Shown here one piece after another: positions 5,865 through 34,150 of a stretch of 64,000 bases of DNA (the stretch's first letter is position 1; each line of letters starts with the position of its first letter). A program made the translations under genes and the position numbers. A model generated the notes under the pieces. The model made no database searches. It was not told the DNA's origin and saw nothing but the letters and a program-made list of their open reading frames with translations. This DNA is from Blasia pusilla (taxonomy: Eukaryota): the NCBI GenBank assembly GCA_050084515.1, contig CM114271.1:20274001-20338000 (forward strand). Direction: 5' to 3'.

Positions 5865-5865
<1 letters not shown>

Positions 5866-8800: not shown

Positions 8801-9890
8801 TATTGAGCACGTTGTTGGGGGCGGCCACCATTGTGTACCGCGCTCCTTTATTTTCTGCTTCCGATGTTATGACGTTGGGGGGTACGACCGTCGAGGCTTT
8901 TCGGCTCGCCGCTACGGTATGTGAATATGGAGTTGGAGTTCCTGCATCACGTTCAGAGGTGATTGCACAGGAGGTGATGGACCTGCCCTTGGAGCGGATG
9001 CTCGGGCCGTCCACGTCAGATTCATGGCAGGCTGCCGCTGCTAGGATGGCGGAGATGCCCGCTAGACCCGCGATAGAGCGCGCCATGGCGTCTCCTGGTG
9101 TTGTGTTGGTGGATAACCAAGGAGAGGTCTTCCAGTTGGTGAGTCCCGGAGGTAGAGCTTTTAGTGTGTAGCGCGTCTTGTTGGATTCAGGAGCGCAACC
9201 CCTGATGTTGGGGAAAGCGTCATTCAGAGGATTGGGCTTGACGAGAGCCGATGTGGAGCGTTGTCCATTCCAGATAGAGACATCTTTGGGCGGAGTGAGT
9301 ACTACACAGTATATCACGCGACAAGAGGTCATGGTGAGGATTCGCGCGGGACATCCTACAGATGAGTCCATGGTGCGAGCCAAGGCGATAGTGACTGATG
9401 CAGAGTCCTACGACGTCTTGGTTGGTGGAGTAGTGTTATACCCGATGGGGTTTTTTCCCTGGATTACCGGGAAGAGTCAGCGTCCTACAAACCAGGATGG
9501 GAGTCAGGTGATGGGCGCCTTAGCTCATTACCCGTTTGATTCACATGTGCAGTGATCGAGCAACGGCCAGGAGAGATGACGACCTTAGCAGCATTTAGCA
9601 GTGCCATCACTTGGCCTAGTGATTTGATTGAGGGACATGTCCATGCAGAAGATACTCCCGTTCCTGATATTTCTATGGAGAGGAGTGTTATGGTAGCCGC
9701 ATCCTTCCGTGGAGGAGAGGTGCCGCTGTGGGGCTCGATTAAGGAGCTTCGACGATTGGCAGATGAGCACGTGCAAACCGCGTGGAGCGAGGCGTTTGCA
9801 CCGGAGCATGACGGGTCTGAGGAACCCGAGGTAGCAGGGATTGCTACAATGACACCCTTGGATACCACACCCATTGTGTGGTGTACCCCG

Positions 9891-10878: not shown

Positions 10879-13800
10879 ACAAATCACAGCGGTTGCGTTG
10901 GTGAGCCCCATGCCTACCAAGATTGTGGAGGCAGTGGCTGGGGGCGAGACCCGAGGAGATCAACACACCAGGGGAGATCGAGAGAGACACCCTTGGACTT
11001 CTTGGGATGTTTTGCAGGTACGCCAAGAGATGATAGCCACAACATCGAGCGTGGTTCCGGGCACTTCATGTGGAGGAGATCAGAGTTTGCAGTTGGTTGC
11101 AAGAGAGCGGTCGAGTGTTGTTGTTCGAGACGGGGTTGCGCCATACCAACCACCGATATCCACGCCGAAGAGTCCTACCGTAGTCACGATGGAGACTTGG
11201 GAGCCAGATATGGGCCCTAAGTTGACATGAGGAGAGCAGCGCCAAAAATATCAATTCCTCACGAGTTATAAGAGCTGCTTTGTGTTTAGCATGGAGGATT
11301 TGGGTACGCTGAAGGCACCGGGGATCCGCATTGAGTTGTCGAGTGATACGCCGATCTTTCGATGACCCTATAGGTACAATGATATGGAGAGGGCTGTGAT
11401 TCAGAGTAGGAGCCAGGACTTGGTTGGAGCAAGACTAGTGGAGATGTCGCATGGGGAGTATGCATCTGCCACTGTCATGCCCGCCAAGAAGGATGTGCAT
11501 GGCAACAAGATGGATAGGCGGATGTGTGGGGATTACCGACCTATCAATCGGGAGACGAAGTCCGATAGGTATGCCATGCCCACCCTTGAGGAGATCTTTG
11601 GTGCAATTGGTCATGCAAAGGTTTTCAGTTCATTGGATTTGTGAGCGGGATACTATCAACTGCCTATAAGATTGGAGGACAGGCAGAAGACGTCATTTTG
11701 GGGCATCGATCCTCACGGGAAAGATTGTTTGTACCAGTGGCGGTTCTTACCATTTGGGTTAAAGAACGCCCCGACTGAGTTTCAAAGGGTCATGGATAGG
11801 ATCTTGGCTGGTCTGGATTTTGTTAGGTGTTATATTGATGACATCGTAGTCTTTAGCGCCACGGTTGAGGAGCATGAGCGACATCTAGAGGAGGTGTTTC
11901 GACAATTGCAATTACATGGGCTTAAGCTACATCCAGGCAAGTGCAAGTTCTTCTACGACCGGATTGAGTACTTGGGTCATACGATATACCCAGGGGGCCT
12001 TGGTGTTCAATAGACAAAGGTAGAGGCTATCTCACGCATTCCACGCCCTACAGATGTGAGCCGTGTTCGTGCATTCATGGGATTGGTAAACTTCTATCGA
12101 TGGTACGTCAAGGGATTCAGTTTGATTGCGGAGCCGCTGACCTTGGTGACCAAGGTGGATCACGAGTGGCACTAAGGGGATGAGCAGGAGCGAGCATTTC
12201 AATTGCTCAAGGATAGGTTGACGTCTGTGCCCATCTTGAGGAGACCAATCAGGGGGCGTCCTTTCCAGTTACACACATATTGGAGCATGTTGGGGCTTGG
12301 AGCGATGCTCACCCAGCATGATGATGAGGGTAGAGAGTTCATGGTGGCTTATGCTAGCCGCTCAAAAAATGCTGCAGAGGCGAAGTATAGCTCGTATGAG
12401 GGTGAGTGCTTGGCTGCGGTGTGGGCTGTCGCGCATTTCAGGTGTTCCTTATTCGAAAATCCCTTTACCATCATCATTGATCATCAACCACTGAAGTGGT
12501 TGATGGAGCCCACAAGCTTACATGGAAGCTTGCGAGATGGGCTCTGTTGTTGCAGGAGTATGATTTTCAGGTGGTACATAGATTTGGGACGCTCAACTAG
12601 GATGCAAATGGGTTGAGTCGTAACCCATGCCCGAGTCAACGAGATGCGAGTGGAGCTCAATGGCATGGAGAGAGTGATGAGGAGTCAGTGCCAGGATGGC
12701 ACACGTCATCCTATTTAGGCATGTTGGCTATGGAGAACCAAAGTGTGGAGACTTCAATGGCTGGGTCTAGTAGAGATTCGTTGGATCCTGAGGCCAGTGA
12801 GGAGACGACTGATGGCCGAGATATTCATGATGGTGGAGTAGTCTTGGAGTACCTTTGGACTGGCAGCGTTGCGAGCACCGTGGGTGCTAGAGAGCGGGAT
12901 CCGATCCTAGAGCGGGCCATACGGTACCGTTGGGAGGGGACACATGTTTTGAGGGTTTGGGAGGATGGCAAAGTACGCGTAGTGCCGCATCCTTCGGAGA
13001 GAGCACGACTAGTGTAGCATGCCCACGAGGAGTTTGGTCACTTTGGGATGAAGCGGACGTACAGCTTGCTCCAGATTCAGTATTGGTGGCGAGGCATGCA
13101 GACTGACGATCAGCAGTTTGTTGCCAAGTGCATGGTGTGTGATCGGGTCCGAGCATCGTTCAATGCTCTGACTCCACAGTTGCATCAATTATCGATCATG
13201 GGCTTAGGATATAGATGGAGTTTGGATTTTGCAAGACCTTTGCCTTTGATAGAGCATCATAATGGTTATGTGTTGATGATGGTCGAGCACTTCTCGAAGT
13301 GGATCGAGCTGATTGCATTGCCTGACAAAGCGAGTGAGGGAGTAGCTTATGCCTTCCTTGATAGAGTGCTGAGTCATTATGGCGCACCGGCTGAGGTGTT
13401 GACAGACCAGGATACCGAGTTTTGCCGTGAGTTCCAGGCCTTGTGTGATCAGGCGCTGATCGACCATCGCACGACTTCGCAAGATCATCCCGAGGCGGAT
13501 GGATTAGCAGAGAGAGTTGTGCAGACGGTGAAGAGGGGTTTACGCAAGTATGGCTTGCAGAGAGGTCACCTAGGAGATTGGGACCTCCAGTTTCCCTGGT
13601 TGGCGATGGGATACAGATTCAGCAGGCATGCATCCTTAGCGTCTTTTTCACCGTACTTGCTACTTTATTGCCGAGAGCCAGATTGACCTACGGCCATTCG
13701 TCGAGATGCTGGTGAGGTGCTAGACCTTGATGATCCAGATGTATGGATGTGAGCATGTTCTTAGAGGGCTGAGTTGTTTCGGAGAGTGATTCCCATGGCC

Positions 13801-14118
13801 TTCGAGAACTTGGCGATTGCGCAGCATTGGGATACGTTGAGGTATGCGACTTTTCGGGGTGGTGGTTATCGACCAACTATCCGGAGGTTTCATGAGGGAG
13901 ATTATGTCTACTTGCAGCAGACGGCACCTACGACGTTGGATGTGATTGTAGGGCGCACTATCCTGAGAGTGCGTGACGTTTTGCCATCTGGTGTTCTCTT
14001 GCTGGAGGGACGCGATGGTATGGTATGGAAGGACCATGTGCGTAATTGTGCGCCATGTCACCTTCCTAACATTGATGGTAAAGTATATCCAAACTTAGCA
14101 GTAGTTCCTACAGGCTTG

Positions 14119-14259
14119 CATTGTATGTTGTGTGGTTCTGCCCGTGGTGCGGCCATGATGCTAGTCTGTGATGGATGTTCGAGAGGTAGGCATATGGCAT
14201 GTCTGACGCCATCTCTCACTAGGGTTCCTCGGGGACGATGGATGTGTCCCAGATGTACA
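14119..14259 (+). other. PHD finger (C4HC3) at integrase C-terminus, copy 1
   Basis: CMLC-x11-CDGC-x4-H-x2-C-LTPSLTRVPRGRWM-CPRC, followed by one residue and a stop. Confidence 0.88.
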
Positions 14260-14448
14260 TAGAGGAGATACTAGGTAGGTTTCGATTTCGACTTGTTCTG
14301 TGACATGGATGACAGGAAGGCGACAAATGATGAGGCCACATGAGCACCCGGCCTTCTTGCTCTTAGCATCCGAGAGATGTGTGTTATGGTAGGTAAGGAT
14401 TGATGGCTATATGGAGTTAGAGGGACCTAACCACCAGCTAGGGGGGCG

Positions 14449-15220
14449 ATTTGAGATATTTTAGTACTTCTTGTCTCGTTGTTTGGATGCCATGAGTTAG
14501 TATGGGATCGTGCATGTTTGTGTGTGTGTTTGGTGATAACGATGTATATTGTGTAGCCATGTGTATGCGCACGACAGTTGTCACGTCTTTTAGGATAGAT
14601 CGGTGAGATCTAGTAGAGAGCCTTTGTGAGTAGTGGAGGACACGTTCAGTAGGTCGAGGATCACCTACTGAGGCCCCAGGAAACCTAAGAGAGCAGGTTT
14701 CCCCTTCGTTTCGGCTCATTTGGAGCCATATTGAGAAGCTTACTATTTTAGGTAAGTGACATCTAGAGTATATGATCTACTTTCTATTTTTGGTAAGTGG
14801 CCCTTGACCTCCTATATCAGGTCAAGAGCCAAGGAGGTGACTTGGGAGAAAAGGTTACCATGGAGAGAGCTTGGGAGAGGGGAAGGGTATACCTCAAGGA
14901 GAGAGAGTTTGAGAACTCATTCTCTCTTTGTTGAACTTCTTAGCATGAGGCGGTGGAGCTATGGTCCCTTGCCTTGTGAGTGTAACCCAAGCCTCTCATT
15001 AGGAGAGTGGGTTTGGTTTGACATGAGAGAGAGTGCACATCTTTAAGAGTTATGGTGTGAGATGGTGTAGAGAGAGATTGGATCTTACTTTAATTGGAGA
15101 TATTTTAGTACTTCTTGTCTCGTTGTTTGGATGTCATGAATTAGCATGGGATCATGCGTGTTTGTGTGTGTGTTCGGTGACAGTGATGTATGTTGTGTAG
15201 CGATGTGTATGCGCACGACA
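14449..15220 (+). repeat. 3' terminal block B1-gt-A2-B2 of copy 1
   Basis: B1 14449-14576 and B2 15093-15220 are 128-bp direct repeats. A2 14579-15092 repeats A1. The block is preceded by the PPT TAGGGGGGCG. Confidence 0.9.
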
Positions 15221-16949
15221 ACTACTAGGTGCGATTGAGCCATTTTAGGTTCCTAGACTATAAAGGAAGTTTGTTCCAAATCTTGAAAGAATTTTCAATG
15301 TTGGGGAGTGAGGGGTGAGGTCACTCTCTAACCCTATATAGAAATAAAGAGGTTGAGGGGGAATCCAAGACCAAGACTCGAGAGAAGTAAGGTTGGTTGA
15401 ACCAAAACGTGGCTAATATGAGTGTGTTTGGATGTAGATCAACCATGTGAGTGTGACTTGTTGAACCTAATCATTCTTCTATGATTTCTTTACGACTTAG
15501 TTATGACGGTCTTGCGAGTTGTTTGAGAGTGCTTTGCAAGTAATTTTTTTGGGACTACTTGGACTTGGAAGGATCCGCAAATGACTCGTATAGATGGGAA
15601 AAAGTCAAGAGTCACTTATGAGCATCTAAGGAACATTTTGTGATTAAACTATGACTGAATTGCTAAGGTAAGAAATCAAACAAGTGGTCTCGCTATCGAT
15701 GTGATGGTGTAAATAACCAAATAAAGATGATAGTTTTTAGCCTCACATAGCAAAGCCTTCATGAGTGTGTGCTCATGCAACAAGTGCCTACAACACAAAG
15801 TTTTGAGATGTTATGAATAATGAGATGAAGGCCAAGAGTCTACATAGCGCCTCTTGGCTTCAAATCCTAAATGGATACATGAAGGATAGGGGATTGTAAC
15901 AGAAAGAATATGTAGCACATATAGAGTAAGGCACAAGTGGGCTTTCATGAGTACCATCTCTAACTCAAGATGGATCATCTAGGAAAATTTCACAATAATT
16001 CTATAATTGTTGAAGAATGATACTAATGGGGGTTTCGAATATTGAACAACTTGATGAAGGGTAGATCTAGAGGGATAAAAATAGAGTGACATGAATGTGT
16101 CTTGTGACATCCAATAAATCATCTTTATATTGATTCCATAATCTCTACTCCAACATTATATGCCTTCTCCTCTCAAAATTATAATTTATCTATGTATACA
16201 CTTGCCCCAACTCTTAGAGGGGGTATATGAGGAATATGCATGCATAGTGGATCCTTCCATCCTAGTAGTTAATGATGGTCTACATAAAAGCATTTCTACC
16301 CTTATGATGTGTAGAAGTAAGTCTTGTCTCTCTTTGGATTATGTCATTTTAAAACACTTGTGTGCACTCGTCCCATGCGTTGGATTATTAAGGACCTTGT
16401 AGTCATATCCAATACTATCCACATAAAAATACGAGTGTAAGCTTGTGCGATGCACAAGTTGAAATTACCTCTCAGAATTAACTCTCAAGTGTCACTTTAA
16501 GTAAATTTTGAATGATCCTATTGGTCGAGAAGATGAACGATTCTATTGCCTAGAAGTGCCACATATAAAGAAGAGAGGAGTTTGCAAAATGAATGACACA
16601 CTCTCCAATAATAATAGATTGTATCCTACATGACAAGAGTAGCCTAAGCCCGTGTGATGCAAGAGTTTATTTTCAATCAATTTTGAGGTATCCTATTGGT
16701 TTAGAAGGCAAGTGATTCCTATTTGCGGTGTATTTCCAAGTGCCAAGTGTTAAGAGGAGAGGAGTTTGCAAAATGAAAAGGCACTCTCCAATAACCAATG
16801 TGCGGCCTTGAGAGGGGGGAATTTGAGAGGACAATTAATTATTATACTCGTGTGAAGGACACGAGGATAGGCTGGATAGTGAGAAAAATAAACCAAGTGC
16901 ATGTAAAGGCCATAAAAATATAGATAAGGGTATGGAACATATAGAAGTT

Positions 16950-19900
16950 GAGTTCAATCACCATGGAGTTCTCTCCAACCCTAATAGATTTAATACCAAA
17001 CAAGTACTCAAATATTAATTATATCTATAATTTTGGTTTGACTTGTTATACCATATCTTTAGTAGTCTCAATAATCAAGGGATCATCAATATACTACACA
17101 ATGACAACCATATGGTCTTGTCCTCTCAAGACACATAGTGAGGAATCAGAATGAAAAACCCTAAACCCTAACTCTTGTAGGATATATGTAATCTTGTCAT
17201 ACCAAACTCTTAAAGTTTGCTTGAGCTTGTATGGACCTTTCTTTAACTTGCATACACGAAATGGAAACTCTATATGCTCATATGTAAATGGATCAGTTCT
17301 TTATCTCTTTTCATGCAGATCCCCATTCAAAAAGGCATTCTTAATATCTTGACATCCATGTGATGTAGCCTCCACAGTCTTTTTACTTATTATAACTGCA
17401 ACCATTGTTCTTGTAACCGCTAACTGTGCAACACGACTAAATATCTCTTCATAATCGATATTATATTTTTGTGCATAGCCATTGGCTATTAATCTGGTTT
17501 TGTATATGTTCTCTATATCATATTGATTGTGCTTCGCTTTTTTAATCTATTTGCAACCAATAACTTCCTTACGAAAGACAAATCAACCACCTCCCTAGTC
17601 TCTTGATGTCTTAATGTAGTAAGCTCTTCCTCCATAGCTTCAATTCATTCAACCTTATATGCAACTTCTTCAAGATAACCTTGTTCTTATTCGTAAAGGG
17701 CAATCATCATATATGTATAGTGTATTGCAAGGAATCCTTCACTTATGAATATATGAACATGACGTATGACTCTATTTAATCTACAAAGTTATTTTTTGAA
17801 AGTTGGATGCCTCTGACATTTAACTTGAGCTCTGAATAGTGTCAATAAAATGAATACGTACTCTTCTTGACCATGGATATTTAGATTTAACTGAAGAGTC
17901 TAGGACCTCATCTAACCTTGCACTAATACTTAGGAAATTAGTGGTAATGTCTCTTGGTTTGAAATCATATTCTTCCCCTCAACAGACAAGTTTAAAAGGG
18001 AATAAGCTTAGATGGAGCATACCATGACTTCAGCTCATAAAAAGTAACATCACGACTAATAATAAGTGGCCTAGAGGATGGAATGTAGCTCTTATACCCC
18101 ATAGTTCCATTAGCGGAGCGAATAAAGATGCATCTCTGAAATTTGGGATCTGATTTTTAACATTTTTTAAAATAAATATGAGCATAACAATACAACCAAA
18201 GATTTTTAGGAATGAAAAATCATGTTAACTTCTTGTGAAGACTTCGAATGGAGTCTTATCAAGAACTCGTATTGTTAGAGTTCAGTTCATTAAGAAGATT
18301 GAGCATGCTAGAACTTCTACCCAATACACTTTATATATGCTCTTCTCATTCAACATAGCGCGTACCGCCTCGACAATATGTCGATTCTTCCGCTCAACCA
18401 CTCCATTTTATTGTTGGGTGAAACAACAAGTGACTTGTCATTAAATGTAATTTTGACACAAGTAATCATCAAACTCTATTAAAAGGTATTATCCTCCTGC
18501 ATCACAACGCAATTTGGGAATTTGCTTCTCTAGAAAAATTCTGAATCTCTAGAACACTGAGAATACTTATGACTTCACTTTTAGAAAGTATATCCATATA
18601 TACCTATAAAAGTCATTAATAAATGAAACAAAGTATTGGAAACCACTAAGGCTATGTTATGATATTGTCCACACATCATTATGAATCAATTCCAATATTT
18701 TGGATATTTTATTATCTTGCTTTGGAAATGGAACCCTTGCTTGTTTTTCAAATTGGCTTGAAATCACATCAAACTCTAGTGAAAGGTATTATCCTCTTCC
18801 ATCAAAAAGCTTGTGAGGTCGTGTGATTTAATACATTAGAGTCGATGTACCAATATGATGTTTAGTCTTTCTTCACCATTTCTCCCATATGATTAGTCAT
18901 GACTAAGAGGTATTTAGTTTGTTAATGTTGTCATTCTTGATAATCACTAGGTATTGTTGCTCCACATAGTTTTATTGTTGTAAGGCTTCCGTTCTCATAT
19001 CTACTTTCTTCTTGAAGAAAAATTTTGCATAGTGACCCTTTATCCCATAATAATTGTACAATCTAAGGATCCTCTACTGATGACCTCAACCCTAACGGTT
19101 TTCATCTTTACCACCTTGTAGTTATTTTTTATATTGGTTCACATTTGATTGAGTGAAGTTATGTTGAGTTTCTCTTCCTCCATATTCTTGATATCCACCA
19201 CGACCACAGAAGTTTCTACCACGACCTCTAACGCAATCTCTTGCATACTATGCGAGCTATTACTACCGACTAGGAACATCTTCTCACTAACTCGCTCACT
19301 AATTAACAATATGACTAACTCTTGAAATGTTGGATTTTTCCATCTCATACAGATACAGATCTCAAAAGACTTGTAATCTTTTGAAAAGATTTGAAAAATG
19401 AACATAATGAGATGATCATCTTCTATAGTCTCTCCAATGCTATTCAACTAATCAAGGATATGTCTAATACTCAAAACATAATCATTAATATTTTGCAATC
19501 CTTTCCTCACTTTTTCAATTATTGTTTCAATTAAAGTTTTTGGCCTTTGTAGATGTCTAGAAAAACTTTGAAAAAACATCATAAGCCTGCTTCAGAATAT
19601 CAACATCTTGAATGTGACTAATCATTGACGAACTGATTGTTATTGAATTTAGAACAAATGCGCAAGGCAAGTAGTCAACATCTTAAATGTGACTAATCAT
19701 TGTCGAATTGATTATTATTGAACATTCAAGTCTCATGAGTCACTTTCTAGTTTGGCCCCATCACATGTAACAAGCTCCCAAAGTTCTTGATCCATGAGAA
19801 ATTTATTCATGCAAAACTTCCAAACATTGTAATTTTACTTATCTAGCTTCTCGCTTTTAATCGCTACTGACCTGAGATTTTCCAAAATTGATCTATTGTA

Positions 19901-21150
19901 TCAAAGAACAAGCCAAAATTGGCCATAGAGAGCAAACTACACAACTTTTCTTCACTAATTGCACTCTCCTCCATTAACATTGTAGAAGCTTAGAATGTTA
20001 GAATCAAATGATTTTGGATGTGTTGGAAAGCTCTCAACGAGCTCTACTCGATGGTGAGAACTAGCCGTTTGTATCGTTCTAACCAACGCGGATCCAAATT
20101 TCTGAATCGACCAGAAAAGCCCTAAAACATGCCTCCAAAGTTTTATCATCGTCACAATTCCACTTGCAATCTTCTACCATTGAACTGTGAGTGAAATTTC
20201 TTTGCCCAAAACTGAAAATTTTCCTTCTCTTGCCTCTCTTCTTTATTCAAACATCAAGAATTTAGATTGATGTTCTCCTACCGCTTTGATACCATGTAGA
20301 AAATTGTTAAACAAGCATAATTGATGCGATACAACTCCACGACAACTATCACGTCTTTTAGGATATATCGGTGAGATGTAGTAGAGCGCCTTCGTGAGTA
20401 GTGGAGGACAGGCTTAGTAGGTTGAGGATGACTTGCTGAGGTCCTGAAAAACTTGAGAGAGTAGGTTTCCCCTTCGTTTCGGCTCATTTGGGTGAGAGGG
20501 GTATACCTCAAGGGAGAGAGCTTGAGAGCTCATTCTCTCTTTGTTGAACCTCTTGGCATGAGGCGGCGGAGCTATGGTCCCTTGCCTTGTGAGTGTAACC
20601 CAAGCCTCTCATTAGGAGAGTGGGTTTAGTTTGACATGAGAGAAAGTGCACACCTTTGAGAGCTATGGTGTAAGATGGTATAGAGAGATTGGATCTTACT
20701 TTATTAGAGATATTTTGGCACTTCTCGCCTTTGTGTATGGATGCCATGAGTTAGCATGGGATCGTGTGTGTTTGCGTGTGTGTTCGGTGACAGCGATGTA
20801 TATTGTGTAGCGATCTGTATGCGCACAACACATACACACACGCCACCATGGAAAATTTTTATAAGAGAATGAGTGAAGGTTCCCTTCTCAATTATACAGA
20901 GTATGTGCAATCAACCCTAACCTTAATTCTAACCATAGGCTCGAGTTATGTTAATTGTGATGAATTAACCCTAGTTAAGATTATCGCATTTAGTTAACTA
21001 ACCAAGATTAAGCTTTCCTATTTCATATGAGAACCAAATATAACAGTTCGTGTATCTAATGAGCTTGAATATAACTTAGTCTTTAATATCTACGACCTAC
21101 AACAACCAATTAATAAATTATTAGTTATATGCACAAGTAGGATTTCAACA
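16950..21150 (-). mobile_element. degenerate Ty1/copia element: 5' LTR, PBS, gag, integrase, partial RT
   Basis: LTR 21150-20295 (TG...CA on the minus strand), followed by iMet-type PBS TGGTATCAAAG (20294-20284). Gag-like ORF 19139-19447. Integrase-like segment reads QNGVVERKNRHIVE on the minus strand at ~18370-18410. RT-like remnants at 17000-17650. Truncated downstream. Confidence 0.8.
20347..20830 (+). mobile_element. solo A-B terminal unit of DNMT-gypsy family 1, inserted in the copia LTR
   Basis: Matches 14579-15220 with an internal deletion. Ends GCGCACAACA and is preceded by the junction remnant CACGACA-AC. Confidence 0.85.
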
Positions 21151-21601
21151 TAATGAATTATGGTTTATAGAAAATTTTGGTAGTTTTGAAATGACCAATG
21201 AAGTTCTTATGTGTTTTCAATTGATATGTTGGGGTTCCTCTCTTTCCTTCCACAGACTTGAGGATAAGCTTGTCTACTAAGAAATCAAATTCTCTTCAGT
21301 TTTGCACTTCCATGAAGGAATGTTACGGCAATTTCACGATGAAAGTGCTTAAAAGGCCCCCCAAGAAAGTAATATTGAGCTAGTAAAATAAGCTTAGCTT
21401 ACACTTGTGAGAAAACTTTTGGAAATCATGATAGGGCTCATTGGCTCGTCATCCACATCTCTCACTCCCATAATCGACCAAATCTTGTGTGACAACTTAA
21501 TGTGGTATGGTTGACATACCTCTTATATATACAATGCCTCTTAAGAAACTTCATCTGTTTTTACTTTCATCAATGTATTTCAATAATTTCTTTTATTGGA
21601 A

Positions 21602-21916
21602 TATCACGTCTTTTAGGACAGATCAACGAGTATCCATGGGGCCTTTGAGGAGACTAGGGAATAACCTTAAGAGGTCAAGGGTAGCCTACATAGATCTAGT
21701 GCAACTTAAGAGAGTAGGTTTCCTCTTTGTTTTGGCTCATTTTGAGCTATATTGAGCAACTTGTTATTTTGGTAAGTTCCTATTAAGATTATAGTTTAAT
21801 TTCTACTTTTAGAAATAACCCTTTATCCCCTATTGCAGGTCAAGAGCCAAAGAGATAACTTGTGAGCACATGTTACTATGAAAAGAGCTTGGGGAGAGGG
21901 AGGAGGCCGGTGTACC

Positions 21917-22010
<94 letters not shown>

Positions 22011-22570
22011 TGGACCTCATTCTCTCAAGCTCTTTGTTGAACCTCTTTGGCATGAGGCATGAAGCTATGGTCATAATTTTGTTGTGAGCAGCCCAAGCTT
22101 CTTATTAGGAGGGTGGGTTTGGTTTGATATAAGAAAAAGATTGAGATTATGTACATGATTTGAGAGATCTTGATTTACAAAGAGAGAAGGTTTATAATGT
22201 GGGAGTTGTGAAGCGATAACTTGCTAGTCTTTCCTTGTGTTTTCATAAGGAAAATGTAAATTGGAGATTGGCTTTTCCACTCAACGGCTCATGGGAGTGC
22301 TCAGCGGAGCAAGAGATATTGATTTTTGTTATTTATAAGCCCATTTTTCGTGCATGAGAGATGTGCACGGTAACCATTCCTAATTTTGTGTAGGAACATA
22401 TTGAGTATGGGAACCAAGATCACCATGTTGGGGCTCTTGGGAGCACCCTTTAGGTTACTAGATTAATTTTTTATGTCTCTAGAGTTTTTTGTGGATGAAA
22501 TCATCGCAGAAGCCTTGTCAATTTTTTCGTAGAAGTTGAGGTGATAGGATATATGTCAATTGCCACCAAC
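21602..22570 (+). mobile_element. diverged 5' fragment (A repeat, PBS, 5' UTR) related to family 1
   Basis: Starts TATCACGTCTTTTAGG like 5275 and is collinear with 5275-6230. Contains a (GA)n expansion. Confidence 0.7.
21921..22007. repeat. (GA)n microsatellite
   Basis: Perfect GA run, expanded from the short GA tract in repeat A. Confidence 0.95.
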
Positions 22571-23147
22571 TTCAAATGGAAGGGACGATGAAGGATCTGA
22601 TTGGAGAACGGTATAGATCAAGAAGCTAATATGCACGTAAAGAAAAGCCATGCTGTCACATCTGAGTAGCCGATAGGCCGAGATCTATCGTGAATAGGGC
22701 GTAGGAGCCAGCGGACTATCTTGAGTGTTACTTTGTCCCACGCTGTCAGATGAGGTTGAGGATAGGTCCATTATGTTAGGAACGTCGTTTTTGACAACTT
22801 TCATGTTGAGGTCTTTCACAACCGGGTGACTTGTTGACCAGGTCACCCGCCCCTGGTAACCTGTGCGCGCGGGTTACCAAGGGGAGGGCTATTTTTAGGG
22901 GAAGAGCCTTTTGGCTCTTCCCAATCCTATATAAGAGAGAAAGATGGCTTTCTTAAGCCATCTTTCTCATGTTGGGCCGTTGGAGCACCTCCCTTGTATG
23001 TGTGTGAGATAGGACTAGGATGCTAGCGTCCGGATTCCTTGTTAGCACAGGATAGACGAGGCTCGATATGTCGATATGGATTGAGGAGTGGAGTTTTAGG
23101 CCGGGTGTGCCGTTTTTTCTGCTCTTTATTTTTACATGAGAAAGATG

Positions 23148-26100
23148 ACATGGCACACAATTGTGCACATGATCCTTCCAAACCATACCATCCCGTCCCT
23201 CCAACATGAGGACTCTGGTCGGTAATACATCGCGCACACGTAGGATTGTGCGCCCTGCAGTGACATCTAGCGTCGTGGGTGCCGCCTGCTGTAAATACAC
23301 GTAATCTCCGGGATGAAACCTCCTAATCCCTCGACGATAACCTCCTCCACGAATGGTCACGTACCTCAATGTATCTCTATGCTGAGCAATAGCTAAGTTC
23401 TCAAAGGCCATAGGCATAACTCTACAAAAAACCTCCGCCCTTTGAGAACATGCTTGTATCCACACATCTGGATCATCAAGATCTAACACCTCCGCCATGT
23501 CACGTCGAATCGCTGTAGGTAAATCTGGCTCTCTCCCAAAGAGCAAAAAGTAAGGTGAAAATGACGCCAAAGATGCCTGCCGACTAAAGTGATAACCCAT
23601 AGCCAACCATAGCAACTGTAGGTCCCACTGCCTCAACTGTCCCCATTGCAAGCCATACTTGCGCAATCCTCTCTTCACCGTCTGTACTACTCTCTCCGCC
23701 AACCCATCCGCCTCAGGATGATCTCTGGACGTGGTGCGGTGATCTATCTGCGCCTAATCACACAAGGCCTGAAACTCTCCCCTGAACTCGGTACCCTGGT
23801 CAGTCAACACCTCTGCCAGTGCACCAAAGTGACAAAGCACATGATCTAGAAACGCATAAGTTGTTCCCTTGCTCGCCTTGTCTAGTAGTGCCACCAACTC
23901 TATCCACTTGGAGAAATGCTCCACCATGACCAACACGTACCTATGATGACGCCCCATCAATGGCAAAGGTCCCGCAAAGTCTAAACTCCATCGATAACCT
24001 AAACCCATAATCGGCAAAGGATGTAACTGTGGAGTGGGAGCATTGAAGGATGATTGCACTTTGTCATATACCATACATCTGGCTACAAACTGCTGTATCC
24101 CAATATGCATGCCGCGCCACCAATACTGAACCTGGAGTAAGCTGTAAGTACGCTTTACTCCGAAATGTCCCAACTCCTCATGGGCATGTTGCACTACACG
24201 TGCTCGCTAGGAAGGATGAGGTACCACTCGTATCCTACCATCTCCCCATACCCACAAAATGTGAGTCCCCTCCCACCTGAACCTCTTGGCTCTCTGTAGG
24301 ATCCGATCCCGCTCCCTAGCACTCATTGTATTCGCTATGACGCCAATGTGCAAGAACTCCACAACCTCCACGTTGTCATGGATATCACGACCACCTGTCG
24401 CCTCCTCACTAACCTCCGGATCCAAAGACTCATCATCCAACCCCACCACTCGAGTCATCACCTGTGGCTGACCTGCCATAGTCAACCAACAAAGATAGAC
24501 AGATGCATGCCAACCGGGCACCATCTCCTCATCACTCTATCCGTGTCATCGAGCTCCTGTGTTGTCTCTCAAACTCGCACATAGGTTATGACTCAACCCA
24601 TCTGCATCTTGGTTCAGCCGACCTGGCCTATGAACCACCTCAAACTCATACTCCTGTAGTAATAGAGCCCACCTGGCAAGCTTTCCCGTAAGCTTGTCGG
24701 ACTCCATCAACCACCTCAACGGCTGATGATCAGTGATAAGTGTGAAAGGATTGCCGAATAAATAGCACCTGAAATGTGCCACGGTCCACACTGCAGCCAA
24801 GCACTCTCCCTCGTAGGAGCTGTACTTCGTCTTTGCAATGTTGTTCGATCGGCTCGCGTAAGCCATAACAAACTCCCTCTCCTCGTCATCCCTCTGAGTA
24901 AGCACTGCTCCTAGATCCAACATGCTCCAATACGTATGTAACTGGAATGGGCGACCCCTAATCGGTCTCTGTAAAATGGGTGAGGACATCAACCTATCCT
25001 TGAGCTTCTGAAATGCTCACTCCTGATCATCTCCCCACAACCAAACCTGATCAAGTCTCGTCAACAAGGTCAAAGACTTTGCGATCGCACTTAAACCCTT
25101 GACATACCGTCGATATAAGTTCCCCAGTCCAAGAAATGCTCGGACTCGACTCACATCTGTAGGGCATGGAATCTACGCAATAGCCTCTACCTTTGTCTGC
25201 TGAACGCCTAACCCACTCGGGTATATGGTGTGTCCCAAGTACTCAATCTACTCCTGAAAGAATCTGCACTTGCCTGGATGTAACTTTAGTGCATATAACT
25301 GCAATTGCCGAAACACCTCCTCCAAGTGTCACTCATGCTCCTCAAATGTGGAACTGAAGATAAGAATATCATCTATGTAACATCGTACAAAATCCAAGCC
25401 AATCAGAATCCTATCCATCACTCTCTGAAACTCTGCAGGCGCGTTCTTCAACCCAAATGGTAAGAACCGCCACTGATATAAGCAATCTCTCCTGAACCGA
25501 TCGATCCTCCAGAATGTTGTCTTCTCCCTGTCCTCCAACCTTATAAGAAGCTGATGATAGCCAACACGGAGATCTAAAGTACTCAAGATCTTTGCATGCC
25601 CTACCGCATCAAAGATCTCCTCAGAAGTAGGCATGGCGTACCGATCTGACCTCGTCTGTCGGTTGATAGGACGGTAATCTCCACACATCCGCCTATCCGT
25701 CCAATTGCCATACATATCCTTCTTCGCCGGCATGACTATGGCAGATGCATACTCCCCATGTGATAACTCCACAAGTCCTGACTCCTGCTCTGAATTAAGG
25801 CTCGCTCCATATCAGAATACCTGTAGGGTCGACGAAAGATCGGCGTATCACTAGCCAACTCAATCTGTATCCCGAGATCCTTCAACGTATCCAAGTCTCT
25901 CATACTGAAGGCAAAACAATTGACATGCCCTCTCAAAAACCTATGAACTCGCCGTCGCTCTCCTCCTATCAACTTGAGACCTATCATAGTCTCCCAAGTC
26001 TCCATTGTGACCTCACTCGGAGAGGACGCAACCTCCGGCTTTGGTTGCTATGTAGCAACCCTAGCCACCTCCACAATAGCCACTCCACTTTGACCTCCTA

Positions 26101-29100
26101 CACCATGCTCCACATTCGAAAAATGAACATGTGCTACTCTAGCCCCCTTCGCACTCTCTGCTCGAACGACGTCCCAGGAAGTCCATGGGTGCCTATCTCT
26201 CCTCGTCTCGCCCCCTGCCAATGCCTATACAGACCCTGTAGGCAATGGTCCAACTCGTGGACGTGACGGCATGGATGACACTTGCATCCGTCTTGGCTCA
26301 GCCATACCTCGGCTGACTATCCATGTGAGACACTTGAGATCCATTGCCTGCCCCAACACCTGTCTCCGAGATGCCTCAGTCATCCCTGGCACCGCCGTAG
26401 TACCGGTAGCAGACCCCATGGCGCGCTCGCGCTCATCTACTGTAGGCTCCTCCTATGCTCCGGTCACCTCATCCCAAATCATGCTTGGCCCTCCTTGACA
26501 AAAGGCATGGGATGCTGGGAAGCTCACCAACATAGGTAAGGCTACCCTCAACTCCCCCACCCTATTGGCCATGGCCAACGGTGGTCTATCATCCCTTGTC
26601 ACCACCTGAGATCGACGCTCTGAGCCCAAAATAGCATCCACTGTGAGATGTGATGCTTTTTGGACTCCATCGTATGCTCGACTCAGTACCTCTGATGGTA
26701 TCAGGTTCGTCCATCACAGTCGTGGATAATGGGCACGTGATCCAACTCTCGCCGTATCTAATAACACAACAGGTCCCAACCAGGACCTCACCTGATACAC
26801 ACTCGTCATCACACGTGCACGAGTGTCTCCCAACAATGGCACGTTCTCCAAGATGTACGTTGGAGAACATGTCTGACTCTCCTACAAGTGTCGTACTACT
26901 CGTAGCATCTCCCAAAACATCCATGACCTCGGATCCTGCAATCCAAATCCTCGGCCAACTGATGAATGACCCTGACATGGCCATCCAGCAATCACCAAAT
27001 GAATGGTGCCAACTCTATCCAAATCCTGCGCCCCCACCAAAGATATGTTGGCGGGTGGTGTATGCTGATATCCCCATACTGAAGATACCGGCAACAACTC
27101 AGGATACCTCTGGACTAATCTCGCCATGTGACGTAATGATACTCGCCGCGCGGTCTCATGTCTCTCCACATAAAGGTACTGATGCACCCGTATGCCCGCC
27201 TGAAATACTACAGCCAATCCGATGCTAATCCCTCCGAAGAGATCTAACACCCTAACACCCTCCTCTGGGCACTGCCACACAACGGGTGTGGTATCCAGTG
27301 GGGTCAACGTCTCCACGCCAAGAGCCCGATCGCCACGTGACTCTCGCTGCTCCGGGATAAAAGCATGACTCCAAGCCTGCCTCACGAGGTTGTCGGCACT
27401 CCTCTGTAGCTCTCGAGTCGTACCCCACAATGGTGAAGAGGTCTTGCCAACATGGGAAGAGACACCCGCCATGGCCTGTCTCTACGTGGGACTATCCGCT
27501 ACTGGGACATCCTTCGCATGTGCGTTCCCCTCCAACAACTCTCCTGGCCAGCTAACACTACCTGTGAAAGCCGCCAACGTGGTCACAGACTCGCCTCGTG
27601 ATTGACCATCTCGTCCCGCAAACTGCACGGGTAACTGACTCATCGGGCCATCACCTGACCGCCATCCTGGCCGATAAGCAACAATCTACTCCCAGAAGTC
27701 AAGGATGAATCCTAGGGGATATAACACTGTACTTTCCACCAACACATCGTACGACTCAGCTGGTGTCATAATCACACGTGTGCGCACCATAGCACTATCC
27801 GTCTCATATACTGTGTGGGTGACACGCCCCCAATCGAGGTATGTATCTGGAAGGGACAAGGCTCAATGTCGGCCTTCCGTAACCCCAACGCTAAACACGC
27901 CGCCTTCCCTAACATCAAGGGTTGCGCTCCTGATTCAAGTAGGACGCGTTGCGGGTGGTATACTATCGTTGTCGGACTAACCAAGCGAAATACTCTAGCT
28001 CGATTATCCAGTAGCACTACTCCAGGTGTCACCACTGCTCGCTCTATGGACGGTCGAGTTGGCATATCTACCAACTTCGCCGCCGCCGCATGCCATGACT
28101 CGGTGGGGAACGTCCCAAGCACCGGCTCTGAGGGCACGTCCACCACCTCCTCAACTACCTCTTAACAAGAAGCAGTCATCTCTCCACGCTCACACAACGT
28201 GGCGGCCAACCGGAACACCTCAGCTGGTCCAACTCCCAACTTCGCCAACTCTATGGCGGAAAATAGTGGAGTTTGACACACTCTGGTGGCCACCTCCAAC
28301 ACTATGGTCGACACTGACTCCACTCGAGCCGGCATAGGAGTTGTCATTCCAACTCCTCGTGACGTCGACATAGGTGCCTGAGCTGTAGGCACTGCTGGTC
28401 GTCGAGGCACCATCGATGGTGTGTGTAGTGCCTCCGACAATGTGAATGACTGTGGAACTCTGGCCTGCCGCCCATCGGTCCCCTCTTGTGGGTCAATCTC
28501 AACTCCACCTCTCAATGGCTCGGTGCCTCTTGTAGCACCCCGAGTCACCACTGCAGCTGCCTCAACCTGGGCTGCACTACACATAAATCCCATACTGGCG
28601 AAATCCTCACCCAGGTCAGGGTAAGAGGTAGAAGCAGGAGTCACACTAGTTGCTCGCAGCTCCGTGCCTTCCCTAAGCTGCATCATCGTCATGGCAACAA
28701 TCCTCTGCTCCAACTGATCGATGCATGAGAGAAGTGTCGGCTCTGGTGCTCCTGCGCCATCTCCTCTGGCTGGTGGTGGTCCTCTACCACCACGTCCAGG
28801 AAGGACTCCCCGACCTGCTCCAGGACGACCGCCCCCAAGCCCTCGGCCTACCTCTGGACGTGCCCCTCGGCGAAGGTCAAAACATCTATCCCTAGTGTGA
28901 CCATATCTGTGGCAATAGTCACATTGGTGCTGTGGTGGGACCATCCTCTATGGCTCTTGAGCAATTGGAGGCGTTGGTGGTCCTCTCCCATGCTGTGGGC
29001 AGTCTTTGTGCCTATGGGCCCCTCCACACGTCCAACAAGACCACATCGGTCCCTGTTGGGCAACATATGTAGGTACGGGTCGTTGTCTCATAGGCTCACG

Positions 29101-30140
29101 GTACACCGCCGCTCTCGGGCACACCTTGGCCCGCTCCCGTGGAAATCTTGGTGCTTCTTTGTGGGTACTGTGGGGTCACCGTCGCTCGTGGACCCCTCGA
29201 CTCTCGAGAAAATCCAGCGGTCACTACCTGCTCCTCACTCATGTTGAGCTCAATACGATCGACAACTCAAAGACCACCTTCAATGGGCTGGGCTTTGTGT
29301 GAATCAAAGACCGCATCTCGGACTCTCCTCCGTAGTTCTCGGTCTAGAACCCTGTACCAATGCTGGACTGACTGTGCCTCAGTCACTCCAAACGTAGCAA
29401 TGATCAGCCTCCTCATGCGTGTGAATGCCTCTCTCAGACTCTCACCCGATCGTCGCTGAAAATCATGTAGACTCTTCAGCTTGCCGGTGCGTACGCCCTG
29501 GTAGCTCTTCCCCAACTGTCAGAAGAACTCCACTATGGGGCTGAAGCTAGGTGGCCCTCTACCACCAGAGGTCTCTGCCACATCGCCTGTCTCACTGCAC
29601 TCCTCTCCATCTAGTCTCCGGGCTGATGGTGTGGGTCTCTCTCCTCTCACAATCCCATCATATGCCTCGTGACCACTAGTGGACACATACCCTGGAGCCC
29701 AATACATCCTCCAGGCATCAATCTCTACTGAATATAGTGATCGAAACTCCATGTAGTCATCCATCGGAGGACCCTCCAAGTGCTGGAACAACCCCTTCCA
29801 TGCCATGAAAGGGTTGAACCATGTCGGGGTCCATATCTCCTAGAAGTCCTACCAGGTGTCGAACTCCTGGATAAAATCATCTAAGTCAATGGTGCCCACT
29901 GCACCCGAGAAATGACGCATGCCCCGATGGCCCATGTCGTCCATCTCCTGCCAAGTACTCTCTGTCTCTCATGCGTGTTCTCGTCACGGACCGGTGTCTA
30001 GTGATGACGATCCAGCCACGGATGGATGTCGAGGTAGCTCCTCACTGGTAACCCCTCAGTATCTCACTCCACTCCGTGTCACACCACTACTACTGCTCGC
30101 ACTACCCCGTTCTTCCGAACCCTGGAAGAACGCCGTGATG
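23148..30140 (-). pseudogene. gag-PR-DNMT-RT-RH-IN pseudogene of copy 2
   Basis: Minus-strand ORF pieces: CWTCGGAHRHKDC and CDYCHRYGHTRDRC knuckles; RVLLESGAQP; VRVLDLFGGI...AGWPCQG; RRQVLGQAMD; YIDD; TDHQPLRWL; WSLDFAGPL, VLTDQGTEF, LAERVVQTVK. Confidence 0.9.
26270..27265 (-). pseudogene. DNMT3-like methyltransferase domain (copy 2)
   Basis: EEGVRVLDLFGGISIG, YLYVE, HLVIAGWPCQGHS, ILENV (minus strand, ~26845-26860), ERAMG, RRQVLGQAMD. Confidence 0.9.
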
Positions 30141-31142
30141 ACAAACCCGGTCTCACCCGCTCAAGCACTCAGACTCACCGAGAGTCTCCCACACGCCTCA
30201 CTAGCTCACCTATGCTAACATCAATCATGTGATGACATACCCGGCCTCACGCACACTCAACACTCGGGCTCACCATGAGCCTCCCAATTCACTCACCTAA
30301 CCTAGCGACACTCTCTCGGGTCATGCACACGACCCCTACTCGGCAATCGCCGTATATCCACCAACATGCTACACATGAATAGAATCTACACTCGTCACCA
30401 TCACTACACCCACCTAGCATCAGCTACTACCCGATACCCAACACTCTCAATCACACACGACAAGTGCGGGAAAAGGGACTCGAATGGGTAACCTGATCAC
30501 GCCCTCCAACCTGCCGCTGTCAACATGCACTCCTCCACGTGATATCACAACCTCCGCAACACAACACTCTCCTCGACCAACACGTCGATCCTCTCGTCAA
30601 CAGATGCGGACAACCCGTCGGCATCATGCGCACTGCCCCTCCATCGTCAACTCTCGCAACGCCCTGTCGCGCCCCAAAACATCATGTCACGCAAATCTCT
30701 CCGTCCATCCCCACACGCGACATGTAACCTGACTCACCCTGGTCTGGCTCCACTCCTACCACGTACGCCCTGTCCGACCACGTGAACATGACCCCGACCA
30801 CATCCGCACTCTCAACCACGTAGCTCAATATCATCCACGTCCGCTGTCCAACTATGTCGGTCACTCACCACGTCAAGATCCTCCCCGCCACCACGTTACC
30901 TAAATGGAGGGAACCTTGGCCCGCACCCCTATGGCTCCCTTGGGCCTTAAATGCGGGGAAAAACGGGGGGGGTGGCCCGCACCCCTATGGGCCTCCCCAA
31001 CTTTTGGGGAGAGAAATAAATGAGGGGGAGGGACGTCCAACCCGTGGGGAGGCGCGCCCCCACCCCCCCTTCCCCCCCCTCTCCTCCCGCAGGGAGGGAT
31101 CCCTGCGGGAGGAGAGGGGGAAAAGGGGGGGGGAGGGGCGCT

Positions 31143-31444
31143 CCTACGTGTGGGTGAGGTATTACCGACCGGAGTCCTCATGTTGGAGGGACGGGATTGT
31201 ATGGTTTGGAAGGATCATGTGCGCAATTGTGCGCCATGTCATCTTCCGAACGTATATGGGACGGTGGATCCGAGCTTGGCAGTGGTACCTGTAGACTTGA
31301 GGTGTATGTTGTGCGGATCTGCGAGGGGTGCAGCCACCATGTTGGTATGTGATGGTTGTTCTCGAGCGTGGCATATATCATGTCCGACCCCCCCCTCTTG
31401 ATGTGGTTCCCACGGGACGATGGATGTGTCCGAGATGTGTATAG
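31143..31444 (+). pseudogene. integrase C-terminus and PHD finger of copy 2
   Basis: VLPTGVLMLEGRD...KDHVRNCAPCHLP...CMLCGSARGAATMLVCDGCSRAWHISC...GRWMCPRC, with one frameshift. Confidence 0.85.
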
Positions 31445-32199
31445 GGCAGTAGGTCATGTCAGAGAGATGTGATATTTTCTATCTGGAGTTGGGGGATCCA
31501 ACTCCAGATAGATTTTTACTACTCTTTATTTTTGTTGTGTGATCTCCATGTATATGTATGAGTTGATTTTTGTACATGTGTGGATCGACCCGTGTGTGGG
31601 GAAGATCGGTGTTGTGTGGTGTAGATGTGATTAGCGATGTATGTTGTGTAGCGATATGTATGCGCACGACAATGCGCATTGTCAATGATTGAGTGTAAAG
31701 TTATGGCCATTCTCAGAGGGTTGCCAAAGTCGTCATGTGAGGAGCAATTTTTTAATTTTCCTTAGTAATTCCTTAGTTTGGAGTAGAAAAGTCAAAAGTT
31801 TTGGGTTTGAGTGGAAACATGAGTGAAAACCTTTTATTAGAGGGAATATAATGAAAATATTTGAAGGATGTTGATCCAAAATTTTGGGGCTAGTGGAATA
31901 TGAACTAAATTTGAGATAATTTTAATGGGTTGATCCCTAGGTTGATCCTTTTTCAAGAGATTAGTGGAGTGGAAAAAAAAACAATCAAGATTGGCTCTTA
32001 AGGTTAAAATATATTCCTTGTGCACACATGGGTACCCATGTATGAAATGACATAACTATCGTTCACCATTCATTAATCATGTACCATTCAACCATCTTTG
32101 TATATTTTCTGATTGTCAAGCATCCAAATCTTCCATGGGCGCATAAGGGAGAGTTTGCAAGAGGCATTTACTCTCCTACATCATTTAATTAGTGTCACT

Positions 32200-34150
32200 C
32201 AAGAGATGATAGAGACCCATGTTGTCTAGGCATGTTATGGAATATTGGAGCGAGACCTGCGAAGATGGATGAGAGATATGACACATTTACATTGCATCTC
32301 ACCTACTTTGAGAGAACGTTTTTGAGTTTGTTGAGTGTAGTGAGCACAATATGATCAAAGAGAGTGTGGCAGCCTTGAGCTATGCAGGGAAGGTTCCACG
32401 AGTGTCTACAAGGGTAGCAACAAGTATCTCGAGAGAGGAGTATGGTAGTGCAAGCCTAGGAAGATTATCAAGAGCATGTGCCATATGCATAGAGACCTAT
32501 GCCATTAGATGCAAGTCAATAAAAACCAAGAGGTTTTTGTTATGCATGTGCTGAAGCCCATCATTAGTAGGATTACCCGTGGTAGGGTAGTGGACACTTG
32601 TGCCAAATTGTGGGAGTACATTGGCTCCCATCATGAGTGTTTTAGTGTGACCATTGTCAACGGTATGGTTACACTTGAGTAAGAATATGTAAGATGTTCT
32701 AGTTTATACCTTGAGCTACGTCCGGATCGAGTGCTAGCTAGAGAGGGAACTAGAGCGAGTTGGCGGTCCAAGTGGGGCAAGAGGTCATCCACAAGTGGTA
32801 CTGTAGGAAAACAAGGAGTTGGATATGTCCGTGGGGGATGTGGATATGCCCGTGGGGGAGGTAGAGTCCACCACCTAGATGAGTTGAGGGGGACTATGGG
32901 CATAAGGTTTGGATGGCTGCTCAAATAGAGCAATTATAACAAAAGATTGTAACGATGGCATTGAGATTATCAGATGTTGGGTCAAATGGATCGACCTCAT
33001 ATAGAGTAGCTAAGGATAAAGGGGATCCCAATTGGATGTGCAAGACTACGTAGATAGAGGTAATTGTTGTGGAGCAACCAAAAAGTTAGATCCATAGAGA
33101 GGTGAGGCAAGGAGACAAACCAAGCTTTCTCATTTATTTTCATTCTTCAAGGTGATGGATTCTGATTAGGGGTCCCAAAGGTTGGATGGTGTTCGTGTGA
33201 AGGTTGTCTTGACTATTATGATGGATCGACGAGATCTAGTAGAGCGCCTTCCAAGATACTGGAGAACAGCCTCATGAGGTCTAGATTCAGCTGGTGAGGG
33301 CATGAATTACCCGAGAGAGCAGGTTTCCCCTTTATTTAGGCTCATTTGGAGCCATATTGAGGAACATACTATTTCGGGTAAGTTACCATTTTTGGAATAA
33401 TTGACTGTCCACTTTGGGAAGTGGCCCTTGACCCGCTACAGTAGGTCAAGAGCCAAGGAGATGACCTGCAAGCATAGGTTACCGTATAGAGGGCTTGGGA
33501 GAGGGAAGAGGGTATACCTCCAAGAGAGAGAGCTTGAGAGCTCATTCTCTCTTTCTTGAACCTCTTGGCATGAGGCGGCAGAGCTATGGTTCTCCTTGCC
33601 TTGTGTGTGTAACCCAAGCCTCTCATTAGGAGAGTGTGTTTGGTTTGACATGAGAGAGAGTGCACATCATGGAGAGCTTGGTGTGAGACCTTGTTGTTGT
33701 GATGGAGAGATTTGATTGATTTAATTGGAGATATTATGGTTCTTCTTGTCTCGTTTTCTGGATGTCATGAGTTAGCATGGGATCATGTGTGTTTGTGTGT
33801 ATGTTCGGTGATAGCGATGTATGTTATGTAGCAATATGTATGCGTAGGACATGTGCCTATATGGGCTTCAAATAAGGGGCTTCGACGCTTAGCCGATGAG
33901 CACATGCTTATGGCATGGAGTGAGTTTTTTTGCACCAAACCGCGATGGGTCAGAGAAACCTAAGGTAGCAGGGAAGGCTATGATGTCACCCTTAAACACC
34001 ACACCGATTTGTAGTATATTCGAGAAGAGGGTATTGGATGTTGGATCTCCTTGGAAGGATCAACGGTTTGGTTGTTGTGTATAAGCAAGATTGCATGTAT
34101 AACAATACTTGTATATGGAGCCTCATGAGGTTCCAAGACGTATCTCACTT
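32200..34150 (+). mobile_element. old, heavily decayed internal fragment of the DNMT-gypsy family
   Basis: 32650-33150 is collinear with 8165-8700 (HCQRYGYT, GAGCTACGTCCGGATCGAG). 34020-34060 is a decayed EEGIRVLDLFGG. Interrupted by a solo A-B unit. Confidence 0.6.
33205..33851 (+). mobile_element. solo A-B terminal unit (family 1-related)
   Basis: TGTC...GACA, collinear with 14579-15220 including the A|B junction TTTAATTGGAGATA. No clear TSD. Confidence 0.8.

Follow-up and report, generated by a model that had tools for sequence, protein, structure and literature searches.

Self-priming of reverse transcription has been demonstrated for the retrotransposon Tf1 of Schizosaccharomyces pombe and proposed for Tj1 of S. 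japonicus; as described in PMC4600332, the site next to the 5' repeat of these elements complements the 5' end of their own mRNA, and no tRNA is needed. Among plant elements, the Tcn1 lineage, present in mosses and club-mosses, and the copia lineage TAR are predicted to self-prime (Neumann et al. 2019, PMC6317226); for SM-Tcn1, an earlier study (PMC2864245) detected neither a tRNA site nor a self-priming site.

Another element, KnitGypsy-Dnmt3 of Klebsormidium nitens, is described (de Mendoza et al. 2018, PMC5890265) as having the gypsy order, a Dnmt in Pol and, "as in DIRS", repeats arranged A - coding - B - A - B. In the main text of that paper the words "primer binding" do not occur, and priming, the polypurine tract (PPT), target-site duplications (TSDs) and a permuted LTR are not treated. 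A search of main texts, mostly of openly available papers, yielded no paper on priming, PPT, TSDs or a permuted LTR for this lineage.

The locus analyzed here, a stretch of 64,000 nt from Blasia pusilla (contig CM114271.1, positions 20,274,001 to 20,338,000, below referred to as the window), contains copies of three element families, F1, F2 and F3, that belong with the Dnmt-bearing gypsy elements of Klebsormidium. In each of them the bases that follow repeat A (S') are the reverse complement of a short word within the same repeat (S), and most likely this stretch is a primer-binding site for the 5' end of the element's own RNA, as in Tf1. The most complete map was obtained for F1, with the following features.

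5271-5274 and 15221-15224, + strand: TSD ACTA, the same 4 nt on the left and on the right side
5275-5865, + strand: repeat A1, starting with TGTCACG, 88-92% identical to 14579-15092 in self-BLAST
5653-5660, + strand: TATA-like word GGTATACC within A1
5683-5698, + strand: S word in A1, the predicted RNA 5' end, 29 nt after the TATA start
5866-5880, + strand: S', the predicted self-primer binding site, adjoining A1 (16/16 counting base 5865)
7241-14259, + strand: interior, broken by stops and frameshifts
10038-10322, + strand: C5 DNA methylase (Pfam)
11645-12010, + strand: reverse transcriptase, RT (Pfam)
12176-12613, + strand: RNase H (Pfam)
13018-13683, + strand: integrase (Pfam)
13765-14259, + strand: PHD finger (Pfam)
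14438-14448, + strand: PPT CTAGGGGGGCG, directly before B1
14449-14576, + strand: repeat B1, ending with CGACA, 90.6% identical to 15093-15220, followed by the 2-nt spacer GT and then A2
14579-15092, + strand: repeat A2, with the S word at 14916-14931
15093-15220, + strand: repeat B2, ending with GACA; the A2/B2 joint is at 15092/15093, and the TSD ACTA adjoins

The coding content was established by Pfam searches of 135 open frames of the window (at least 88 aa) and by tblastn between copies. Three homologous broken coding regions were identified, on the plus strand at 7241-14259 (F1) and 54004-61105 (F3) and on the minus strand at about 23112-30190. The order of domains is gag-like, C5 DNA methylase (PF00145), RT, RNase H, integrase (H2C2 and rve) and PHD finger. 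PF00145 is situated upstream of RT in F1, in the inverted interior of F2, in F3 (a weak match) and in the first frame of L053, a nearly intact relative from the metagenome scan described below; the K. nitens entry P0047 carries it as well. In place of a chromodomain, which Pfam does not report, F1, the F2 fragment and L053 all have a PHD finger (PF00628); nor is a tyrosine recombinase reported for the window elements or L053, where rve and Integrase_H2C2 are present. The elements are copies, all of them decayed in the window, of a streptophyte Ty3/gypsy lineage with gag-like, protease, methylase, RT, RNase H, integrase and PHD parts.

In L053, a frame of 1369 aa encodes the protease and the methylase, and a frame of 1047 aa encodes RT, RNase H, integrase and PHD; a single stop codon separates the two frames between the methylase part and RT (976-8226), and a GC-rich word occurs at both ends of the contig, which gives the impression of an assembly joined back onto itself. 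Among solved structures, Ty3 Gag-Pol is the best relative of its pol protein. Among the matches listed, the nearest named homologues are from liverworts (63-64% identity), followed by K. nitens (41-48%) and Closterium; many homologues carry both methylase and PHD domains, and the best 120 are all either of the PHD lineage or unnamed. The likeness to KnitGypsy-Dnmt3 thus comprises the gypsy order with a methylase, the repeat order and this level of identity, while the host is different and the nearest named relatives in these matches are the liverwort ones.

Self-comparison and alignments give the repeat plan A1-S'-interior-PPT-B1-A2-B2 with 4-bp TSDs outside, and the order A - coding - B - A - B is observed in F1, F3 and the metagenome loci L005, L019 and L051. 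The preliminary description had treated A as the repeat of LTR families; the repeat does exist, but it is the larger half of a split repeat composed of A and B and not a whole LTR. In F1, A begins with TGTC and B ends with GACA, and the joint between B and A is a near-palindrome, which in the metagenome family M1 reads CATGACAGCTGTCATG. F3 has the same plan.

52859-52862 and 62148-62151, + strand: TSD ATGC, left and right
52863-53488, + strand: repeat A1, with the TATA-like word at 53208-53215 and the S word at 53240-53252
53340-53345, + strand: AATAAA within A1
53489-53501, + strand: S', starting at the first base after A1 (13/13 to 53240-53252)
54004-61105, + strand: decayed interior, with homology to F1 extending from the gag-like part to PHD (tblastn, BLASTN)
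61274-61284, + strand: PPT
61285-61402, + strand: B1, followed by the spacer GC
61405-62029, + strand: A2
62030-62147, + strand: B2

Since the A2/B2 joint is visible and B starts directly after the PPT (which is conserved in F1, F3, M1 and M2, the second metagenome family), the last base of U5 can be located without presupposing any mode of priming. F1, F3 and M1 all have S' starting at the base that follows. In particular, A of F1 ends with ...CTTACTTTA, followed by the start of B in the 3' copy and by CAAAGAGAGAATGAG in the 5' copy, and A of F3 ends with ...CAACTT(T/A)AT, its 5' continuation being ATCCTAAGGAGAT. The complementary stretch, beginning at the first base after U5, therefore sits where the minus-strand primer site must lie, and the pairing is absent where B follows A.

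Among the copies of F2 in the window, one is an insertion with an inverted interior.

22650-22653 and 31672-31675, + strand: TSD ATGC, flanking a single insertion, 22654-31671
22654-23133, + strand: repeat A, copy 1, with TATA at 22929, a hairpin at 22937-22968 and the S word at 22959-22972
23134-23147, + strand: S', copy 1 (14/14 to 22959-22972)
23148-31141, - strand: inverted interior (Pfam, tblastn and reading of the junctions)
23757-24206, - strand: inverted integrase (Pfam)
24549-25016, - strand: inverted RNase H (Pfam)
25332-25811, - strand: inverted RT (Pfam)
26885-27481, - strand: inverted methylase (Pfam)
31142-31671, + strand: 3' end in direct sense, with the PHD region, the remnant of the A end and B2
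31512-31533, + strand: remnant of the A end, 22 nt, joined to B2
31534-31671, + strand: B2, ending with GACA
36595-36913, - strand: partial repeat A, followed by a B-like start and not by S'
37155-37648, + strand: second 5' end, with A at 37155-37634, S at 37460-37473 and S' at 37635-37648 (13/14)

The exact reverse-complement pairs noticed in the preliminary description are all present. The pairing is 16/16 in F1 (5865-5880 vs 14916-14931), 14/14 in F2 (23134-23147 vs 22959-22972) and 13/13 in F3 (53489-53501 vs 53240-53252), and in all three families it begins, as had been claimed, directly after repeat A, at 0 to 1 nt from its end. The perfect partner in F1 is situated in the 3' repeat copy, A2; the 5' copy of the S word (5683-5698) matches S' at only 14 of 16 positions, and the two mismatches, which we read as decay, fit an old insertion, as the A copies of this element are only about 90% alike. 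The suggested spacing of about 30 nt from the TATA-like motif also agrees with the data, S starting 29 (F1), 31 (F2) and 30 (F3) nt after its first T.

In order to estimate how frequently such complementarity occurs by chance, 20000 random 25-mers were drawn from the window, and their longest complements were compared with the observed lengths, draws overlapping the true sites being included. The observed length was reached by 2 (F1), 51 (F2) and 7 (F3) of them, all explained by overlap with the true sites or with the inverted F2 copy; no other random 25-mer came near the observed helix lengths.

Further families were identified in metagenome contigs, which were scanned with two aligned integrase pieces from the window (F1 and the inverted F2 copy). 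This yielded 443 matches, 232 of which encode relatives, and the best 80 of these 232 loci (60-82% identity) were taken for analysis; a scan of viral contigs with the integrase alignment yielded 159 pattern matches and no relatives. The best 80 loci contain two more families, M1 and M2, with the same design and different words. Most of them belong to M1, whose A is about 340 nt long and ends with ...CATTTTC. In 5' copies of M1, A is followed by ACTCAAAGAAC(T), complementing a word 26-33 nt after TATA, and in 3' copies the start of B follows directly. Of the 12 nt that follow A, those paired with the S region number 8, 8, 9, 9, 9, 10, 10, 11, 11, 11, 11, 11, 12 and 12 in the 14 distinct 5' copies, while in 15 copies with B after A the best pairing is 5-7 of 12. 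Moreover, in an M1 subfamily (L062) the S word differs at two places and S' is changed to match, giving a helix of ten Watson-Crick pairs and one G-U pair with changes on both sides. Most of the S region is lost in the M1 copies L009 and L038.

M2 is represented by L053, with an S:S' pair of 15-16 nt. The order of A and S' is seen here in a contig that runs from B1 through A into the leader, A1 and A2 having seemingly been collapsed in the assembly. When regions upstream of the integrase were searched for inverted pairs in an unsupervised way, chance 10-mers made up most of the output. A 12-nt inverted pair in L047 was considered as S and S' and rejected, being a hairpin inside a tandemly repeated leader unit.

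Thus, the word pair differs between all five families and its two positions are kept, S starting 26-33 nt after the TATA start in every one of them. When S regions are compared with A tails across all five families, own pairs form helices of 11-17 nt, and foreign pairs reach 3-6 nt. The earlier claim that the words differ and the pairing is kept is therefore borne out in a larger set than the original three families. Such co-variation between families in the same or related hosts would not be produced by a single host primer, and the presence of three different sites in one genome also argues against one host primer.

Consistent with the preliminary description, no TGG-type tRNA site was found at or near the end of A in the five families, where A is followed by CAAAG, ACATG, ATCCT, ACTCA and CTTGA. 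The contrast drawn there with a neighboring copia element can be kept in a weak form only, as the TGG-type site of the latter (20283-20294, - strand) matches a 12-nt tRNA-type word with one mismatch, but 21 of 100 shuffled sequences match at least once too. Neither the window nor 40 loci contain tRNA genes predicted by ARAGORN, and Rfam gives no matches at the gathering score in the window.

Self-priming in these elements would proceed as follows. The RNA would start at S, most likely about 30 nt after the TATA-like word in A, and its first 11-17 nt would fold back onto S', the exact complement adjoining A1. By analogy with Tf1 (PMC4600332), cleavage of this duplex by RNase H would then release a 3' end from which minus-strand DNA would be extended across U5 and R, followed by the first strand transfer to R of A2; the plus strand would be primed by the PPT at the start of B. 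The inference of Tf1-like priming made in the preliminary description is supported by the U5 boundary, by the agreement of five families and by the M1 copies, with "Tf1-like" to be understood as applying to the mechanism and not to membership in the group.

An additional element of this design is a second copy of the S' word upstream of S (S'u). The inverted repeat that had been noticed over the predicted transcription start of F2 (22937-22968) is a real hairpin with 13-nt arms and a 6-nt loop. Similarly, in M1 (L005, about 1833-1858) and M2 (L053, about 8828-8855) the S word forms a perfect hairpin with S'u, situated between TATA and S; a weak version of it exists in F1 and none in F3. Assuming that transcription starts at S, the S'u arm would be absent from the RNA 5' end and present in the 3' copy and in read-through RNAs, and S words located elsewhere than at a proper 5' end could be held off the primer site by it. 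At the same time, this arm slightly weakens the argument for self-priming, since some of the complementarity of M1 tails runs upstream into it (in L061 reaching 19 nt after TATA), so that the helix is not strictly bounded by a plausible start site.

Several other explanations of the S:S' complementarity have to be considered. One is that S and S' form a structural stem of the leader, acting in packaging, dimerisation or translation control, and that the true primer is a host RNA binding elsewhere. Retroviral leaders carry U5-leader stems, in F1, F2 and F3 alike the predicted minimum-free-energy fold is closed by the S:S' helix, and the S'u hairpin demonstrates that the S word is not confined to a single structure. 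Still, this explanation seems unlikely, as the five families lack a TGG-type site near the A end, S' starts exactly next to U5, where a primer site must be, and no conservation between families is seen downstream of S'.

Even less probable is the possibility that S'u and S' are direct repeats flanking R-U5 and providing homology for strand transfer or circle formation. It would agree with the identity of the S'u and S' words in F2, M1 and M2 and with the fact that split repeats call for some unusual joining step, but F3 has no S'u and F1 a weak one, both having perfect S:S' pairs, and neither loss nor doubling of the segment from S to the A end is seen in any of the 14 5' copies. Finally, the words of F1 are GA/CT-rich, the F3 word is partly palindromic, and inverted 10-mers at such spacing were common in the unsupervised upstream scan, so one might ascribe the matches to chance, low complexity or palindromes. 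This is refuted by the controls: the helices, exact and 13-16 nt long, are offset by 0 to 1 nt relative to the end of A, random 25-mers attain such lengths only via overlap with the true sites, the same design occurs in five families, and the complementarity is missing where B follows A. Self-priming from the element's own RNA is therefore the preferred explanation.

The inverted F2 insertion may bear on the length of such a primer. The left breakpoint of the insertion 22650-31675, which lacks the PPT, B1 and most of A2 at its 3' end, lies within the last 6 nt of S' (AAGATG), and this hexamer is shared with the complement of CATCTT in the linker between integrase and PHD. A piece of 104 nt flanks the inverted block in opposite sense (23142-23245 and 31142-31245). 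One reading is that the end of a plus-strand strong-stop DNA coincided with that of the self-primer copy and that this DNA annealed at the wrong place, in which case the breakpoint would be a fossil of the primer length; alternatively, the inversion may have been caused by a later genomic rearrangement. The direct repeat formed by the two F2 copies (22654-23147 and 37155-37648) includes S' in both of them, as both are 5' ends. No other leader matches what follows S' in the second of these copies, nor the inverted interior at its far end.

Compared with Tf1 and Tf2 of S. pombe and Tj1 of S. japonicus, the elements studied here have in common the self-complementary site and the Ty3/gypsy type. 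The Tf1 helix is 11 nt long, compared to 11-17 nt here, and the Tf1 self-primer is reportedly not removed. The differences are as follows: the integrase ends with a PHD finger and not with a chromodomain as in Tf1, the window elements have a C5 DNA methylase before RT and split repeats, and many copies add the upstream hairpin partner for the primer word. Of the features characterizing the Tf1/sushi group, exact complementarity of 13-16 nt is observed, and S as the RNA 5' end is predicted from the TATA spacing of 26-33 nt, but there are neither chromodomains nor ordinary identical LTRs. Kinship with this group is thus not supported by the PHD finger and the split repeats, and the likeness is in the mechanism only. 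Tcn1 elements also differ in having chromodomains and ordinary LTRs, and TAR is of the Ty1/copia type. With DIRS, Ngaro and PAT-like elements the lineage shares the split direct repeats (A1 - interior - B1 - A2 - B2), while its integrase is of the DDE type with an H2C2 zinc finger, a tyrosine recombinase is missing, target duplications are 4 bp long and the ends are of the TG..CA type.

The positions of the predicted primer site and the PPT imply that the LTR of reverse transcription is B+A, a circular permutation of the integrated ends, the latter being the start of A and the end of B. This leads to the tentative suggestion that reverse transcription makes a B+A LTR and that the integrase acts on the internal GACA-NN-TGTC joint between B and A rather than on the cDNA tips. 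If a linear cDNA, [B A]..[B A], were cut at its two internal sites, a short form, A-interior-B, would result, whose own RNA could not serve to restore the promoter half of A. For the long form, A-interior-B-A-B, the cDNA tips would have to be joined beforehand, the A end to the B start, via a two-LTR circle or an end-to-end template jump of the plus strand.

Both forms are found. In 44 rows with B after the PPT, read by eye and including cross-sample duplicates, B is followed by A2 in 19 and by unrelated flank in 25. The short form (A-S'-interior-PPT-B, no terminal repeat) is thus common, and it carries 4-bp TSDs (TACA/TACA in L009, ATTA/ATTA in L041 and TACA/TACA in L061; three of four positions match in L064, none in L049); among long forms, TSDs are AAGG in L005 and TCTC in L019. 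The short form could also have arisen by recombination between B1 and B2. No mirror form (A, B, A, S', interior, B) was observed, the left flanks of 11 distinct 5' A copies being unrelated, and A follows B2 in none of 20 B2 rows. The lack of the mirror form argues against a randomly cut two-LTR circle and for a directional step, such as a template jump. Moreover, the A/B joint of M1 varies, mostly with AG added, in other copies AA or GAA (1-3 nt), and in one case the final bases of the polypurine region together with an extra piece of about 20 nt (examples are L012 3050, L016 2687 and L005 10693); it looks as if the joint is made anew in each round.

Further copies in the window are F1-like.

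20338-20830, + strand: F1-like A with a deletion, followed by B
21601-22535, + strand: diverged F1-like 5' end, A and leader
33203-33851, + strand: F1-like A with B after it, surrounded by fragments of another copy

In the diverged copy 21601-22535, the S'-like word (22178-22190) now matches its own S poorly. A (GA)n run occupies 21920-22005 between the TATA-like word and S of this A, and another such run is at 62824-62897. The window also contains a copia-type gag fragment with a weak Pfam match (19142-20337, - strand), and the repeat 19868-20337 recurs inverted at 49932-50411. A separate family of repeats, about 300-390 nt long, has four copies, at 38277-38663, 49657-49976, 51679-52089 and, inverted, 20835-21088, some of them flanking the region of ATG5, a host gene at 45694-47116 with the UblB domain at 46042-46638. 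Over 44001-64000, contigs of four runs, presumably of RNA, cover the ATG5 exons and leave F3 nearly uncovered. The run contigs join 45846 to 46101 over a GT..AG intron in the ATG5 gene. In all four runs, the GA-rich segment 45335-45640 has contigs at a depth of thousands with many odd joints, probably a simple-repeat pile-up.

LTR finders that expect equal LTRs and a tRNA-type site would miss these split-repeat elements or misplace their boundaries, above all those of the repeat-less form. As the primer site and the PPT reveal the permutation, DIRS-like repeats become a testable scheme in which the ends made by reverse transcription are not the ends used by the integrase, a point relevant to the long-standing issue of whether integration can ever proceed from joined LTR ends. 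Self-priming was previously known in the Tf1/sushi group and predicted for two plant lineages; if the interpretation given here is correct, it would operate in a third, structurally very different lineage, ranging from charophyte algae to bryophytes.
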